Below are positions 1-18,974 of a stretch of DNA of 35,768 bases, in pieces (position 1 is the first letter of the stretch; the number at the start of each line of letters is the position of its first letter). The DNA is from a virus. Its lineage: Duplodnaviria > Caudoviricetes. The DNA lies in the IMG/VR virus record IMGVR_UViG_3300032233_002708, positions 1 to 35,768 of that record, one strand, 5' to 3'. The translations under genes were made by a program, and so were the position numbers. The notes beneath the pieces are model-generated. The model did no database searches. It was not told where the DNA came from and worked only from the letters and a program-made list of their open reading frames with translations.

Positions 1-424
1 CATTTCTAGCATCTTCAATCATTTTTTCCTTTGATCGTCCGTGGACCCCAGTTTTTTTATCATAGGTTAGTTTTCCATTTATTTTTCCCATAATTTTTCC
101 AGTTTTTCTTCCATTTTCTCTTAATACTTTAAGTGATGTTTTTCCCCCACAACTTTCATTCAAGCACCATTTATCAGTATTATAAACTGGTCTTATTATT
201 CTTTTCTCAATTTCTTGTGCGTTTATCCAACCTTGATCATTATAATTAAATATTTCTAATATTTGTTTCTTTGGAGTATAAAGTTCCCAACACCATTTAT
301 TTGTATATGGAGACCCCCAATATTCTTCATCAAATTTTTTTTCCTTATGGACTCCATAGTAATAATATGGAACTTCTTCAAAAGTAATTTTGTATATATA
401 AACCCTTGGACTTTGAAAAGTCAT
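1..424 (-). CDS. GIY-YIG-family (Seg-like) homing endonuclease, 3' end beyond the window
   Basis: Not in the ORF track; translated by hand from ATG at 424: MTFQSPRVYIYKITFEEVPYYYYGVHKEKKFDEEYWGSP...AQEIEKRII...CLNESCGG..., open to position 1. YIY-x9-YYG variant of GIY-YIG plus YxGS, catalytic E and N motifs; late promoter at 452-459. Confidence 0.8.
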   Translation of the reverse strand, partial: MTFQSPRVYIYKITFEEVPYYYYGVHKEKKFDEEYWGSPYTNKWCWELYTPKKQILEIFNYNDQGWINAQEIEKRIIRPVYNTDKWCLNESCGGKTSLKVLRENGRKTGKIMGKINGKLTYDKKTGVHGRSKEKMIEDARN

Positions 425-451
425 AGTTCTACTCTGTTAGGTTGGCATTAT

Positions 452-459
452 TATTTATA
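452..459 (-). promoter_or_regulatory. T4-type late promoter TATAAATA for the endonuclease
   Basis: Exact gp55 consensus 28 nt upstream of the ATG; +1 predicted near 446. Confidence 0.8.
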
Positions 460-465
460 AAATAT

Positions 466-493
466 AAAAGAGAAGGTGCCAAGAGACACCTTC
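466..493 (-). terminator. Intrinsic terminator of the putative sRNA
   Basis: GAAGGUGUC-UCUU-GGCACCUUC then UCUUUU; the U-G wobble only forms on the minus strand. Confidence 0.75.
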
Positions 494-521
494 CTACCTG
501 AAAAGCGCCAACCTAACAGGT
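466..521 (-). ncRNA. Putative ~56-nt antisense sRNA against the endonuclease 5' UTR
   Basis: Own late promoter (527-534), stem ACCUG/CAGGU (521-517 with 500-496), terminator (493-466); 519-507 is the exact complement of UTR 446-434. Confidence 0.7.
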
Positions 522-526
522 ATTAT

Positions 527-534
527 TATTTATG
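527..534 (-). promoter_or_regulatory. Late promoter CATAAATA driving the putative sRNA
   Basis: Same CATAAATA variant precedes several late genes here; followed by the same ATAAT spacer as the 452-459 promoter. Confidence 0.7.
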
Positions 535-591
535 ATTTTTTTTTATTTTTTAAATCCTTATGATGTGGCCTAGGTTATTATTTAGGATTTG

Positions 592-801
592 TCAAGGGGT
601 TGGGCCATTAGTAGTTGTGATGCTTAGGATCTCAATCGTAGGTTCCTCATCATCTTCACTAATGCTTAACCATTCATAAAACTCGGAGTCCAATGCAATT
701 GCATCTTCAATTTTATTGGCACTGATTAGTTCACTATGTCGTTCTAAACACCAGTCCCGAATATCCTTCACAATCAATTCAGTCGCTGTAATTTTTTCCA
801 T
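592..801 (-). CDS. Hypothetical acidic protein (69 aa), probably early
   Basis: ATG ORF directly downstream of a consensus sigma70 promoter. Confidence 0.7.
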   Translation of the reverse strand: MEKITATELIVKDIRDWCLERHSELISANKIEDAIALDSEFYEWLSISEDDEEPTIEILSITTTNGPTP

Positions 802-806
802 AAATA
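799..806 (+). promoter_or_regulatory. Late promoter CATAAATA for the + strand GIY-YIG gene
   Basis: Motif overlaps the start codon of the opposite-strand 69-aa ORF and points at the GTG start at 854. Confidence 0.5.
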
Positions 807-824
807 TTAGCTGTATACAAGATT

Positions 825-853
825 ATTGTACCATACCCAAGGAGCGGTGTCAA
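825..853 (-). promoter_or_regulatory. Sigma70-type early promoter
   Basis: TTGACA (853-848), 17-nt spacer, TGn-TACAAT (830-825). Confidence 0.8.
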
Positions 854-1276
854 GTGTGGATGATGAATGATAAAGAATTTTTATCTATACCAGAAAAAAT
901 GGAAGGTTTTGTTTATTGCATTACTAATCTTGAAAATGAGAAGAAGTACATTGGAAAGAAAACTTTTTGGGAAAGAAGAAAAGATAGAAAAACAGGAAGA
1001 AGAAAGAAGAAAGAAAGTAATTGGCAGGATTACTTTGGTTCCTGTGATGAATTAATTGAAGACGTAAAAAAACTCGGAAAAGATAAATTTTTCCGAGAAA
1101 TTTTATATTTGTGTCCCCATAAAAAATCTATGTCTTATTATGAAACATATGAGCAATTTAAGAGGAATGTTTTATTACGAGAAGATTATTATAATACTAA
1201 TATAGAAGGTAAATTTTTTAGCAGTGAAGTTGAAAATATATATTCTATTGTTAAAACAGAATTAACCGATCTTTAA
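854..1276 (+). CDS. Stand-alone GIY-YIG nuclease (140 aa, catalytic domain only)
   Basis: FVYCITN...KKYIGKK, YFGS, E and YYN motifs; start moved to GTG 854 because of RBS AAGGAG at 839-844. Confidence 0.8.
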   Translation: MWMMNDKEFLSIPEKMEGFVYCITNLENEKKYIGKKTFWERRKDRKTGRRKKKESNWQDYFGSCDELIEDVKKLGKDKFFREILYLCPHKKSMSYYETYEQFKRNVLLREDYYNTNIEGKFFSSEVENIYSIVKTELTDL

Positions 1277-1417
1277 TTCATCGATATAATTTAAGACTTC
1301 ACTTAAATATTTGTGTGTAACCCATTTTTCATGTGGTGAGATTTGCTCACTATCCAATTTATGTTTTAGTTTTTCTACTCTTGCTTTTAGAGTATAAATG
1401 TCAGTAATGTGAATCAT
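1262..1417 (-). CDS. Small hypothetical helical protein (51 aa)
   Basis: Hand translation MIHITDIYTLKARVEKLKHKLDSEQISPHEKWVTHKYLSEVLNYIDELKIG; fills the gap and resembles small cyanophage ORFs near nrdB. Confidence 0.7.
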   Translation of the reverse strand: MIHITDIYTLKARVEKLKHKLDSEQISPHEKWVTHKYLSEVLNYIDELKIG

Positions 1418-1434
1418 AAAATTTACATATAATA

Positions 1435-1457
1435 AAGGGGAGTGAAAGACTCCCCTT
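1435..1457 (-). terminator. Intrinsic terminator
   Basis: 9-bp stem AAGGGGAGU/ACUCCCCUU followed by a U-rich tail, just after the 374-aa gene. Confidence 0.75.
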
Positions 1458-1473
1458 ATAATTTAATTGCAAA

Positions 1474-2598
1474 TCAATCTTCTAGATATTGGGATGCAAT
1501 ATTTTCAATTACATCTTCAGAAAGATTTTCTAAGATGACAAGTGCATTTTCAAGATTATCCGCATAACCTTCGTTAATTAGATCTTCAAGAATACATTGA
1601 GCTAAAAGTTCATAGTTACTCTCAGCTATTGCTGCTTTTCTTGCTGCACGAATTGCAGTATCTCTTGCTGCTCCTGTCAGTTCTTTTTTGTTTGCTCCAA
1701 TAGGGACAATTCTTCTCTGTGCATGTCTACTGAAGGTATGTGCAGTAGAAGGACCGCCCTTGCCCAAAGTTTTTAACCCCAATTCTACTTTTGGTGAGGA
1801 AGCTGATTTTGGTGCTGGAGATGGACCTTGCATAGCTCCAGTTCTCTTTGCGCTAGCAACAGCAGCTTTATTCTTTTCAGATCTTATTGCACCAACAACT
1901 GCTTTTCCAGCTCTTTTCAGTAAACCACCAATTGCTCTACGCTTACTGCCACCGGATTTGGTTTCAGTTTCGGTTTCAACTGGAGCTGGACGACCACCAC
2001 CAGAAGTAATAGTTTTTGTTCTAGTTGTTACTTGGGCCTTTTCTCCAGCTTTTTCAACTCCACTACCCATTCTTTCTGCACTTCTACCGGCTTTGAGCGC
2101 AGCAGCAGCGCCAGTACGGACAACCTTTGTAAGTGCTGCCTTTGCCTTTCCAGCAAGACCAGCCGCACGGTTATATGTACCAGTTGCAGCCTTACTAACT
2201 GCTGAACCAACTCCTGCAGCAGCAGATTTAACTGATTCTCCCGCTTTCTTAACGGCACCAGTTACTTTGGCTACTCGCTCTTGTCTTCTAGCTGTTTTTA
2301 AAGTTGCAGCTCGTTCTGCTCCAACTCTAGCAGCTCTTTCTGCTTTCTGTCTTGGGTTCATGGCTTCTGCCAAAACTTCTTCCAAAATAACATCAGAAAA
2401 AGTATTTTGAATTAAATTATAAGACTCATCTAGAGTATTTCCATAATCCATAAATTCCCAAAGAAGAGATTCCATAACCTCTTCAATCTGTTCATTCATA
2501 AGATAATCTACAAATTTTAGATTTTCGTAGAATGTCTCATCAGTTTTTCTTGGATTATATAATTCTCCGTAAGCTTCAGTAAGATAATATCTTGACAT
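1474..2598 (-). CDS. Late protein with basic Ala/Lys/Gly-rich core and acidic ends; probable virion-internal protein
   Basis: Late promoter 2629-2636; LxEAY N-terminus and C-terminal LINEGYAD...ENLSE motif shared with 12658..13545. Confidence 0.75.
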   Translation of the reverse strand: MSRYYLTEAYGELYNPRKTDETFYENLKFVDYLMNEQIEEVMESLLWEFMDYGNTLDESYNLIQNTFSDVILEEVLAEAMNPRQKAERAARVGAERAATLKTARRQERVAKVTGAVKKAGESVKSAAAGVGSAVSKAATGTYNRAAGLAGKAKAALTKVVRTGAAAALKAGRSAERMGSGVEKAGEKAQVTTRTKTITSGGGRPAPVETETETKSGGSKRRAIGGLLKRAGKAVVGAIRSEKNKAAVASAKRTGAMQGPSPAPKSASSPKVELGLKTLGKGGPSTAHTFSRHAQRRIVPIGANKKELTGAARDTAIRAARKAAIAESNYELLAQCILEDLINEGYADNLENALVILENLSEDVIENIASQYLED

Positions 2599-2628
2599 GG
2601 TAGTATAGTATTTGTAATTTCCTTTATA

Positions 2629-2636
2629 TATTTATA
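2629..2636 (-). promoter_or_regulatory. Late promoter TATAAATA
   Basis: Exact consensus upstream of ATG 2598. Confidence 0.75.
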
Positions 2637-2663
2637 AAAAAAAATTGCTGGAAACACTTTATG

Positions 2664-3866
2664 TCAAAGTTTAAACCCAGAAAATGCATCCGATTTCATG
2701 TCCTGGCTCACCCCACCAATAACATAAGACTCTAAAGCCTCTTCTTGTGGTGGATTTTGAACATTTTTACTGTTCAACCAATCTTCTGTCCAGGGTAGTG
2801 GATTATTATTTGCGGGAATATCATAAATTGGTTTTAATCCAAGTGCCTTCATTCTTCGATTTGTGATCCACTCAACATAATTGAATAATAGTTTATCGTT
2901 CAATCCAATCATAGATCCATCTTTAAACAAATACTCTGCCCACTTCTTTTCTTCGTTTGCTGTTTTTTCAAACATAGAATAGACATAAGGTTCTTCTTCC
3001 TTTGCTATTTTTTTCATATCAGGATCATCAAGTCCATTTTTCCATTTCGTAAGAATATTCTGTGTTAGAAATAAATGGAGCCTTTCATCAAGTGCAATCT
3101 TAGAAATAATCTTTGCAGATCCTTCCATCAAATGAAGTTCACCAAATGCAAATGAACAAGCAAAAGAAACATAAAAACGAATTCCCTCCAGAATATTTAC
3201 ATTTGCAATGGCACGATAAAGTTTTCGCTTGACTTCATATAATTCAAGTTTTCCTAAATCTACACCCTCATTATTAAATTTCCAAAGATTGGTAGATGAA
3301 TATGTATTTGCAGATTGAACATAATCATCATATGAACTCGTTACACTCTTCGCACGTTCAAGAATATTCTCATCATCAATAATTTTATCAAATACCTCAG
3401 ATGGATTTGAGTAAACATTTTTAATAATATAAGTATAAGAATAACTATGAATCATTTCCATAAATTCCCATACGATCATTGCAGATTCTAATTCTGGTAA
3501 TGAACAATGCGGAAGAAAAGCAAGTCCAGGACCTCTTCCTTGAACAGAATCCAACATAATCTGATACTTCAAATTTGAGGTAAAAATATGTTTCTGTTCT
3601 GGTCTTAATTTTTGATAGTCCGCACGATCTTTTGTCAATGGATATGCCTCAGGTCGCCAGAATGCACCTAACTGATCCTGGGTTAACTTATAAAAAACAG
3701 GAAACTTATGAACATCATATCTTTGAATTCCCAAAGGGGGACCAAAGAACATGTTATTTTTTGAATAGTCCGAAATATTTGAATTAAAAACTGTCATGCC
3801 TTTGATTTCAGATTTGTCAATCACACTTTTTTCCTCACTATTTGCTTTAAATCTTACAATACTCAT
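2664..3866 (-). CDS. nrdB: Class I ribonucleotide reductase beta subunit
   Basis: FWRPE, LDSVQGRGP, EMIHSYSY (radical Tyr), EGIRFYVSF, DERLH, PQE...Y motifs. Confidence 0.97.
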   Translation of the reverse strand: MSIVRFKANSEEKSVIDKSEIKGMTVFNSNISDYSKNNMFFGPPLGIQRYDVHKFPVFYKLTQDQLGAFWRPEAYPLTKDRADYQKLRPEQKHIFTSNLKYQIMLDSVQGRGPGLAFLPHCSLPELESAMIVWEFMEMIHSYSYTYIIKNVYSNPSEVFDKIIDDENILERAKSVTSSYDDYVQSANTYSSTNLWKFNNEGVDLGKLELYEVKRKLYRAIANVNILEGIRFYVSFACSFAFGELHLMEGSAKIISKIALDERLHLFLTQNILTKWKNGLDDPDMKKIAKEEEPYVYSMFEKTANEEKKWAEYLFKDGSMIGLNDKLLFNYVEWITNRRMKALGLKPIYDIPANNNPLPWTEDWLNSKNVQNPPQEEALESYVIGGVSQDMKSDAFSGFKL

Positions 3867-16472: not shown

Positions 16473-18974
16473 CTATGCGAAAAATGAAGTGAGTGTCGAT
16501 ACTTTTTCTGTATGCCAACCAATAATGTCAAGAATAGATTTTAGAGGAAGCAAAAAAGTCTTTTCGAATTGGAGCTTATAATCAACATAAGGATGAACAT
16601 CAAATTCAGGTGGAAGTTTTTGTATGAAAGAGATTACATTTTCATGAATTGGATTTGGAAGCTTCAAATAACAAAATTTAATTTTTTCTCCATTTTTTAT
16701 TATGGAGTATTTCTTGTCCAATTTTTTGGTTTTGACCAACTCATTATACAAAATTGATCCCCTAGTTTGGATTGGGGTTCCTTTCTTATACCTTTCCACT
16801 TTAGACATGTATTTGGTAACATCATTTACAGATTTTGGAAACGATACTTCTTCTGGAGACAAAGCAAAAAATTCTTTTTTTGTTTCCGCAATGTATTTAA
16901 TCATTTCATCTTCGGTTGAATTCATGATCAAGCTAATTGCTTCTTTTAATTTTGTTCTACAGAAAGAAGGAGTCGATGATCGAATTGCTTCCACTCCAGT
17001 CATTGATAACTCAGGCTCATCGTATCGAATGCCCTCATTGTCCCAAACATTAGCAATGTATTTTTTCTTTGCTAAGAACACAGCACGGTCTGTTATTTTT
17101 TCTCTCTTCATATGCAGTTTATGTCCATATGCAGACAAATAAGTTGCCAATTCTCGATATGATGTGTCCACATATTCTTGAATTGTAGTAGCAAATATTT
17201 TATCTAAGAAGTTTATAACTTCTTCTTTTGTGTGTGGTTTATCTTTGAATATCTTATTGACTAATGGACCCATGTTAAGAAAAGTAGAATCAGTATCTAC
17301 ATAAATCACATAATCAACATTATCAGTTTTTAATATTTTATTAAAATATTCATTAAATTTTTTCTCAATCCATCTAATTGCAAGTTGTCCGGTATAAGTA
17401 ACTGCCTCTGCATTCCTCAAATCATAAAATCTAAAATAAGGATTTCCAGTTGCACCATAACATGAGTTCAAACAAACTTTAATTGACTGCTCCTTAACTG
17501 AATACATTGAAATCAATTTTTTCAATTTTAGATCTTTGGTTTTTTCATATTCTTTTTTTATTTCTTTCATCTTGTCTTTATAAAATTTTCTTTTATTGAA
17601 CATTTTATCTAACAACTCTGGAAGAAATCCCATACTGTCTTTTTTATACATTGAGCCATTTGGGCAAACTGAATATTCAAAATTTTCAGGAATTTTAACA
17701 GTCTTGGCCAATGCAGAGTCAACTGATATGGAAGAGAATGTGTCCTCCAACAAGGTATCTGGACTGATATTGAAGCCCATCATGATATGTGGATACAGGG
17801 AAGTCAAGTCCATACTAACAACATAATCATAAACACCAGTCAATGGAGTTTTTACAAATGCCCCAGCATACTTGTCTAATTTTTCTTTTCTCTTTTCCCG
17901 GAATGGAATGATTACCTTCTTTCTTCGAAGATAATTGTAGATAATGGTATCCCACATTCGTACTTGATAGAATATATCTTCAAAGTTTGTTTTGGAATCA
18001 AATGCAAGCATGATTGCTAGTTCAATTAGATGAAGCTTATCCTCCAATTTGTTTACAAGTTCTACGTCAATAACATTATACTCAACAAATATTTCCCATG
18101 CGTTATCATAAAAATCTTTGAATGTTTCAAATTCACTATGGTCTAATTTTGTCAGTCCTAGCTCATTATTTGCAATTGTATCCAGTCTATAATTTTCTGG
18201 TTTTTTAAAAGAATATTTTTTATAAAGATCAAAATAATCAATAACAGAAATACCAAAAATATCATATATTGTTTGGTATTCACCCTGTCTTATTTCCACA
18301 TCTTTATTGGATATCCAAGTACAAGGAGATAGTCTTCTTGTTACTTTTTCACCCAAACATTTATACATTCTTCCTATGATGTATGGAAAATCATAGTACA
18401 GACAATTCCATCCGGTAACAATTTCTGGATAGTTATTTGACCAATACTCTAGAAAACAATTCAATAAATGACTCTCAGAACTACATAAAAAATATTTGTG
18501 ATTTTTTAATTTCTTTGAGAATGGTCTAGTTCCCCAAGTAAGTATTTCTTTTGTTACGTAATTTTGAATTGTAATAAGAAGTATTTCCTCTTCACAATTT
18601 TTTGGATCTGGGAATCCATTTTCCGATGATACCTCAATATCCAAAGCAAGAATGTTTATTTTTGTGATGTCGTATTCTATTTGCTCTTCTGTATATGTAT
18701 CTGAGATGTATTGATATATACAAGTCTCATTACCATATATTTTAAATCCTTCTACATCTTTATATTGTTCTATGAAATTTTTAGCTTCTTTGATTGTACC
18801 TGGATTTATTGGTTTAATGTAATCTCCGTCTAGAGTTGTATATTCAGTTTTGACTTTTGATTTAACATAGTAAGTTGGATGATAATCAACTACATTATTA
18901 AAGTGAGTTCCATTTTCGTATCCACGAATATAGAGCTTATTTCCAAGTTGTTTTACATTTGTATACCAACGCAT
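16473..18974 (-). CDS. gp43: Family B DNA polymerase (T4 gp43-like)
   Basis: Exo DIE, TGWN..YD, YNVIDV; pol DLTSLYP, KxxLNSxYG, YVDTDS; no intein or intron seen. Confidence 0.97.
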   Translation of the reverse strand: MRWYTNVKQLGNKLYIRGYENGTHFNNVVDYHPTYYVKSKVKTEYTTLDGDYIKPINPGTIKEAKNFIEQYKDVEGFKIYGNETCIYQYISDTYTEEQIEYDITKINILALDIEVSSENGFPDPKNCEEEILLITIQNYVTKEILTWGTRPFSKKLKNHKYFLCSSESHLLNCFLEYWSNNYPEIVTGWNCLYYDFPYIIGRMYKCLGEKVTRRLSPCTWISNKDVEIRQGEYQTIYDIFGISVIDYFDLYKKYSFKKPENYRLDTIANNELGLTKLDHSEFETFKDFYDNAWEIFVEYNVIDVELVNKLEDKLHLIELAIMLAFDSKTNFEDIFYQVRMWDTIIYNYLRRKKVIIPFREKRKEKLDKYAGAFVKTPLTGVYDYVVSMDLTSLYPHIMMGFNISPDTLLEDTFSSISVDSALAKTVKIPENFEYSVCPNGSMYKKDSMGFLPELLDKMFNKRKFYKDKMKEIKKEYEKTKDLKLKKLISMYSVKEQSIKVCLNSCYGATGNPYFRFYDLRNAEAVTYTGQLAIRWIEKKFNEYFNKILKTDNVDYVIYVDTDSTFLNMGPLVNKIFKDKPHTKEEVINFLDKIFATTIQEYVDTSYRELATYLSAYGHKLHMKREKITDRAVFLAKKKYIANVWDNEGIRYDEPELSMTGVEAIRSSTPSFCRTKLKEAISLIMNSTEDEMIKYIAETKKEFFALSPEEVSFPKSVNDVTKYMSKVERYKKGTPIQTRGSILYNELVKTKKLDKKYSIIKNGEKIKFCYLKLPNPIHENVISFIQKLPPEFDVHPYVDYKLQFEKTFLLPLKSILDIIGWHTEKVSTLTSFFA

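Follow-up and report, generated by a model that had tools for sequence, protein, structure and literature searches.

Why should a phage nuclease gene be preceded, on its own strand, by two late promoter-like sequences, the first of which appears to serve only a short hairpin RNA complementary to the leader expected from the second? The question is raised by positions 425-534 (minus strand) of a complete 35.8-kb viral contig (35,768 nt), called the window here because it is the whole stretch that was analysed; nrdA, nrdB, and primase genes lie on the same contig. These positions are the control cassette of a mobile nuclease gene in a T4-like cyanophage.

The cassette and its nuclease gene

Read on the minus strand, the unit consists of P1, a hairpin RNA, a terminator, P2, a leader, and the nuclease ATG at 424. 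Every element named in the earlier note was found in its place. The features are as follows, with the basis of each assignment in brackets:

579-595, minus: remnant of the promoter region of the host site, TTGACA at 595-590 and TAAATA at 584-579 (common to the empty allele L249)
527-534 (534-527), minus: P1, octamer resembling a T4-type late promoter, CATAAATA (sequence; family conservation)
522-526 (526-522), minus: P1 spacer, ATAAT (sequence)
466-521, minus: predicted small RNA of ~56 nt, hairpin plus terminator (fold z of -6.4; family length)
496-521, minus: hairpin 1, ACCTG...CAGGT, comprising arm, loop, and closing strand (covariation at 6/6 stem pairs)
507-521, minus: antisense arm, a perfect 13-nt match at 519-507 plus 521-520 past a bulged A of the leader
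461-494, minus: intrinsic-terminator-like hairpin (494-471) and T-rich tail (sequence; family pairing)
452-459 (459-452), minus: P2, late promoter, TATAAATA (sequence; family conservation)
447-451 (451-447), minus: P2 spacer, ATAAT (sequence)
425-446, minus: leader of 22 nt, target of the arm from +1 to +16 (fold and predicted binding)
2-424, minus: nuclease gene, free-standing and truncated where the contig ends, resembling GIY-YIG/Seg on inspection of its motifs (phrog_314 match; related loci; alignment)

The accessible part of PMC2984593 gives NATAAATA as the cyanophage late promoter consensus. Based on promoter spacing, the small RNA is predicted to start at 521 and the mRNA at G446. The 494-471 hairpin is the only terminator-like site between 380 and 720, where shuffled sequences averaged 0.2. 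Segment 519-507 is the exact reverse complement of 446-434, as had been claimed, and no other exact 13-nt inverted match spaced 40-120 nt apart exists in the entire window. The match does begin at the predicted +1; its end moves from 9 to 6 nt before the AUG once a bulged A (433) is allowed, which adds two pairs to the duplex. Folding of 460-524 was well below that of shuffled sequences (z = -6.4), the free leader was unstructured (-5.4 kcal/mol, z 0.36), and the net predicted binding of arm and leader was -16.1 kcal/mol. The hairpin loop had been thought to hold 10 of the 13 complementary nucleotides; ViennaRNA predicts a weak inner stem that closes part of the 16-nt loop, with UGGC staying open.

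The visible part of the nuclease is 141 aa, and its nearest relative is 217 aa. The protein has a weak match to phrog_314, 'homing endonuclease' (E 1e-4), and 0 Pfam matches; a relative, L097, matches the same PHROG at E 2.4e-8, and the Y and G positions of the GIY-YIG motif align between the window protein and its relatives. Proteins 58-67% identical to it occur in the Synechococcus phages S-SRM01, B3, and B23, whose records account for the only 4 matches among 50,697; no relatives in bacterial or archaeal genomes were found among 58 candidate stretches.

Occurrence and covariation of the cassette

A search with the 2-424 protein yielded 78 related loci (among the best 80 of 133 stretches). 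The homologue alignment proposed in the earlier note upheld the architecture: with the window included, both promoters were present in 77 of 79 loci (best 80 of 133 stretches), the remaining two lying at contig edges, and the arm co-varied with the leader. The flanks of the cassette vary between loci. A search by RNA pattern only, with P1 left out of the pattern, yielded 122 loci; just 22 of these encode the nuclease family of the window. The others precede further GIY-YIG-like and HNH-like families, and one cassette copy in S-SRM01 precedes an endonuclease-VII-like gene. The collection comprises 155 distinct combinations of cassette, gene, and site, at 151 sites, part of them from a genome scan that selected on pairing energy; the non-circular counts are those for scaffold-picked loci and for a set of 56 pairs described below, and the family loci are redundant and phylogenetically non-independent. 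A nuclease-like ORF is present in 154 of the 155 and a 1-codon ORF in the other, and the terminator tail has 6 T in 8 nt in 132. Predicted small-RNA lengths in the family are ~47-60 nt.

Six whole genomes contained 85 tandem-TAAATA pairs, 23 of which (20 cassettes) had a strong duplex; all 23 preceded nuclease-like genes and were clearly separated from the other pairs. The cultured phage S-SRM01 has six cassette copies, at 17955, 48435, 51249, 55961, 62408, and 192423, with different predicted specificities, and its predicted pairing matrix is diagonal. The cassette is thus far placed in viral and metagenome contigs, S-SRM01, B3, and, by similarity, B23. A cassette model, R1, matched 7/7 records chosen as carriers and 0/5 control phages (S-CRM01, S-PM2, P-SSM2, S-CBWM1, T4).

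Rfam 15 returned nothing but tRNAs at the gathering threshold for window positions 1-3000, for seven loci that included four type-I cassettes and the S-SRM01 sister cassette, and for seven loci of the sister scaffold described below, in agreement with the earlier view that the RNA belongs to no described family. A full-text literature search, with most subscription journals outside its reach, found no description of the cassette. The words 'promoter', 'antisense', and 'small RNA' are absent from the accessible part of the S-SRM01 paper (PMC8557907), and six motif strings had no match in the searched part of a survey of viral structured RNAs (PMC10690425), in whose catalogue the motif may sit unannotated. 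The cassette is real, widespread, strongly co-varying, and apparently undescribed.

Covariation between arm and leader was assessed on 56 distinct pairs taken from the protein-retrieved loci (best 80 of 133 stretches). In all 56, the arm paired with +1 to +7 of the leader, through 37 different 8-nt seeds. Watson-Crick pairing at +3 to +7 was 93-100%, as compared to 35-45% by shuffling; upstream of +1 it fell to 11% at -2 (32% expected) and 16% at -4, position -1 being merely conserved. The register had been picked at each locus for maximal pairing, which gives weight to the energy control: duplexes of cognate partners reached -22.1 kcal/mol versus -9.1 kcal/mol for non-cognate ones, and 48 of the 56 leaders had their own RNA as best partner.

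The RNA scaffold was examined in 59 sequences, from which the covariation structure was also drawn by hand. All six stem pairs of hairpin 1 have changed on both sides, with 87.6% of cells paired; the value for the terminator hairpin is 95.4%. Together the two hairpins reach 92.5% in the 59-sequence alignment, a level seen in 0/500 shuffles and compared with 46-58% in slid controls. The proposed combination of a fixed scaffold and an exchangeable loop holds for the loop, which co-varies with the leader; the scaffold is fixed in shape, not in sequence, since its 5' stem strand co-varies too, as does the closing strand with the arm. In predictions for 64 arm/leader types, the hairpin is open only opposite mRNA +1 to +4 (unpaired probability 0.90-0.97), and its 5' stem is paired (0.90).

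Because seeds are shuffled across protein families, we set aside the protein tree and followed changes on a spanning tree over the 64 types, near neighbours being joined by only 9 of its 63 edges. The tree contained 121 compensated two-sided changes, 22 one-sided changes that keep pairing, and 11 that break it. In the full collection, G is found at the predicted +1 in 147/155, and the duplex ends 2-9 nt before the AUG in 153/155 (6 nt in 97). Leaders are AG-rich, without a clear or strong GGAG-type Shine-Dalgarno sequence, and the helix ends ~6 nt before the AUG. A recurrent feature of the RNA/leader helix, in many type-I cassettes and most of the sister type, is a bulged A, perhaps a means of avoiding double-strand RNases.

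That the RNA has its own promoter, as the earlier note held, is consistent with the persistence of P1. Among 119 loci selected by the pattern without P1, 117 have TAAATA at the P1 position (~4% expected per 70 nt); the two that lack it are one false match and one degenerate cassette with mismatched arm and leader. P1 is present in all 73 scored scaffold-picked loci, and its TAAATA is followed by 5 nt and a purine in 149/155. It matches the consensus less well than P2: the base before TAAATA is A in 112/155 and C in 41/155, as compared to P2, where the two preceding bases are T in 151/155 and A in 153/155. When empty alleles were compared, TAAATA stood at the projected junction in only 5 of 78 rows, one of them not truly empty and three from the same site; the projection may err by as much as 25 nt, and in L074 the TAAATA may likewise derive from the site. 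P1, kept in 117/119 and missing from most empty alleles, thus travels with the element. In L249, the empty allele of the window's own site, a TTGACA-N17-TATAAT promoter is intact before a different gene and the cassette TAAATA is missing. Empty-allele homology often extends to the last base before TAAATA (A or C in 153/155); the right edge is usually the stop codon, past which no conserved signal was seen by eye. The elements are strikingly minimal and their ends sharp. These comparisons establish the architecture, the complementarity and its covariation, pairing that begins at the predicted +1, P1 kept as the left edge, and portability across nuclease families.

Three loci merit separate description. 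L088 is a degenerate cassette, with P1 lost and the arm mismatched to the leader, and is apparently a chimera of two seed types. L112 (minus strand, 985-770) has an intact P1, hairpin, terminator, and P2, followed by what appears to be a nuclease gene reduced to its 3' end and, next, by a gene that looks hsp20-like by eye; it is a solo RNA left by an apparent nuclease deletion. L249:1700-2200 contains a sigma-70-type promoter, a ~150-nt leader without an Rfam match, and then a gene, putatively RlpA-like from its motif, and tRNAs.

Probable trans repression and its alternatives

We consider it rather probable that the small RNA is a trans-acting translational repressor resembling RNA-OUT, with a cis lock on read-through RNA as backup. 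The proposed course of events is as follows: P1 would make a separate hairpin RNA of ~55 nt, and its loop would seize the P2 message at the free 5' end; the duplex would then zip down to ~6 nt before the start codon, likely blocking translation of the nuclease. Read-through RNA from upstream that escapes termination would form this helix within one molecule, so that the cassette probably acts both in trans and in cis. Early in infection, the terminator and the cis lock would keep the nuclease silent; late, with transcription from many genome copies, the small RNA would limit how much nuclease is made. The messages silenced by a given cassette would be chiefly those that carry its own seed. We infer transcription from P1 and P2, termination, pairing in trans, and repression.

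A locked read-through RNA alone gives no reason for keeping a promoter, so the retention of P1 suggests that the terminated product has a job. With a duplex that reaches to ~6 nt before the AUG and a leader that has no structure when free, repression is the most likely job. That pairing ends at +1 favours action in trans, since a cis helix has no evident reason to stop there, as does the co-varying closing strand, which a cis-only lock would not need. Open bases facing +1 to +4, set against a paired 5' stem, form in these predictions the geometry described for RNA-OUT of IS10. Against a trans repressor, judging from sequence, stand the weakness of P1 relative to P2, the absence of P1 from most copies of the sister scaffold, and the rarity of solo RNAs; moreover, RNA and message have the same class of promoter and would be co-expressed, with a benefit that we infer.

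RNA-OUT is transcribed from the strand opposite its target, which makes complementarity automatic; unlike it, the cassette RNA and its target are arranged in tandem on the same strand, and a change in either has to be matched in the other. In IS10, as presented in the accessible part of PMC4737173, the RNA-OUT hairpin loop starts pairing with the unstructured 5' end of the RNA-IN mRNA and blocks translation. The loop of the cassette is likewise predicted to pair with the 5'-terminal bases of its target, the +1 of which is derived from promoter spacing; unlike IS10, the cassette has 60 natural seeds, and its cargo is a phage nuclease under late promoters. In type I toxin-antitoxin systems a small RNA blocks translation of a potentially harmful neighbouring gene, as is predicted here, although the cargo in our case is a DNA nuclease of 150-360 aa and not a small peptide. 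The S-PM2 antisense RNA CfrI, according to reviews, is also a cyanophage RNA linked to a homing endonuclease gene; it is ~225 nt long and spans psbA and F-CphI on the opposite strand, unlike the cassette RNA, which is on the same strand with a predicted ~47-60 nt and whose model R1 has no match in S-PM2.

The closest counterpart among phages is the cis hairpin of T-even genes (I-TevI/II/III, segB, Aeh1 mobE; e, soc, 49), in which, according to the accessible parts of PMC2988022 and PMC3014915, an upstream arm masks the leader and a late promoter in between gives a free message. P2 (459-452) lies in the same manner between arm and leader, and the read-through RNA is predicted to fold the arm onto the initiation region. 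The T4-type arm flanks its promoter and, in those sources, is described only in cis; the cassette arm is 40-60 nt upstream, in a hairpin of its own, with its own promoter and a terminator. The cassette would work like RNA-OUT and descends conceptually from the T4 hairpin, and it lacks a defining feature of each.

The main rival is accordingly a cis-only lock, an elaboration of the T4 mechanism: the terminator would stop most upstream transcripts, leaked ones would fold arm onto leader and stay untranslated, P2 would bypass the lock late, and P1 would be incidental or only occlude P2. We regard this as the less likely but still serious account. It is the mechanism established for the T-even genes listed above, and the read-through fold has a predicted energy of -44.3 kcal/mol versus -30.5 kcal/mol for the separate parts, favouring cis by ~14 kcal/mol. 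A same-strand ORF ends just upstream at 138 of 148 sites, so read-through is expected, and the sister scaffold manages mostly without P1. The cis-only reading nevertheless leaves unexplained why P1 is retained, why it forms the left edge, why the closing strand co-varies, and why pairing stops at +1. Plain T4-type hairpins in the same genomes lack these parts, which makes the cassette extra machinery. By eye, L051 (terminator just upstream) and L074 (divergent promoter upstream) have kept a cognate arm where no read-through from upstream is evident. The full answer likely includes a cis role.

It is improbable that the RNA pairs in trans to stabilise or time the message, by shielding its 5' end from RNases, rather than to repress it. 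Pairing does cover exactly the 5' end of the message, leaders lack a strong GGAG-type Shine-Dalgarno sequence, and antisense duplexes that protect mRNA in cyanophage infection have been reported (PMC3113571, accessible part). The duplex nevertheless ends within the stated 2-9 nt of the AUG, and the free leader has no structure that needs opening. The last few nucleotides before an AUG fall within the region covered by the ribosome.

We give little credence to a reading of the inverted repeat and TAAATA as DNA-level signals (element end, cruciform, or operator) rather than parts of an RNA. Empty-allele homology often stops right at TAAATA, giving a sharp edge, as such a signal might; G-U pairs and bulges occur in the arm/leader duplexes, however, which points to RNA rather than DNA pairing, spacing and purine start fit a late promoter, inspection by eye showed nothing conserved past the stop codon at the right end, and no transposase accompanies the cassette.

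Least credible is a guide or cofactor role for the nuclease, already judged the less likely in the earlier note: an RNA of constant shape with one variable stretch next to a nuclease gene recalls one, yet 18 of 60 seeds are common to two or more unrelated nuclease families (one seed to five), identical RNA/leader pairs are found in front of GIY-YIG, HNH, and endonuclease-VII-like genes, which disfavours a protein-specific guide, the longest match of the arm is 7.8 nt in its own flanks and 7.7 nt in those of other loci (48 loci), and in two whole genomes the best late-leader partner was the own leader for 10/10 arms, with exact matches elsewhere of only 9-12 nt. RNA-guided nucleases (OMEGA/TIGR-like) differ in both respects, as these comparisons gave the variable segment no target match outside the locus and the RNA is not tied to one protein family.

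Co-infection, sister scaffold, and neighbouring genes

Our broader proposal is tentative. Freshwater T4-like cyanophages may carry at least 60 seed-specific RNA/leader pairs on two unrelated scaffolds, swapped between HNH, GIY-YIG, and endonuclease-VII genes. These pairs might act in trans as self/non-self locks, a resident cassette silencing an incoming nuclease of the same seed during co-infection, and seeds might diversify in the manner of plasmid incompatibility groups and so determine which of the selfish genes can home.

The repression of related endonucleases in co-infection suggested by the earlier note found little support, with one solo RNA and within-genome cross-pairing at background. 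Two specific forms of the idea fared no better. Selection for orthogonality within genomes was one: cross-reacting pairs numbered 1/30 and 1/29 (overlapping sets, the second without four de-duplicated cassettes), equal to the 3% background. Solo-RNA immunity modules were the other, with one case (L112) and 0/73 among scaffold-picked loci. Orphan target leaders were absent from two whole genomes.

In its accessible part, a review of T4-type homing endonucleases lists promoter choice, autorepression, and cis hairpins as modes of control, and calls regulation of free-standing endonucleases an open area (PMC2988022). A portable antisense RNA with dozens of natural specificities would, if true, add a trans layer to this control, and would give selfish nucleases a way to interact in mixed infections. 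The RNA/leader pairs would also supply, ready-made, a set of translational repressors that are compact and orthogonal. Should the cassette act in cis alone, it would remain an RNA family absent from catalogues, with covariation of unusual clarity. The idea is directly testable in cultured S-SRM01 with its six cassettes.

A second, unrelated RNA scaffold was observed in S-SRM01 (L227:18172-18265, corresponding to ~77.57-77.67 kb of the phage) and in L388-L457. This sister scaffold has an outer stem, a conserved internal loop, an inner stem, and a large antisense loop, and stands in front of genes of GIY-YIG-like, HNH-like, and other types. Pairing between its loop and the leader extends nearly to the AUG, and the two co-vary across 33 types (cognate -25.5 versus non-cognate -17.1 kcal/mol). 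In 69 scored loci, three of them chance matches, P2 was present in 66 and a cognate leader in 65, and an upstream TAAATA in only 16; an arm without its own late promoter is workable in this scaffold.

Classic T4-type hairpins with a nested promoter stand before other nuclease-like genes, whose families were assigned by eye, at 126143 in S-SRM01, 186485 in genome G002, and 158397 and 45948 in genome G004. Their arm lies beside the promoter, with neither P1 nor terminator, in the same genomes as cassettes.

Two further genes of the window were noted. The plus-strand gene at 716-1276 encodes a SegE-type GIY-YIG domain protein (PF19835, E 5e-38), for which the best PHROG carries the label 'NAD synthetase'; no cassette accompanies it, and it adjoins cassettes on their upstream side in L042, L046, L053, and L057. 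The minus-strand gene at 1474-2598 encodes a 374-aa, Ala/Lys-rich, low-complexity protein with no Pfam match and a weak match to phrog_764, the acidic ends of which look conserved.
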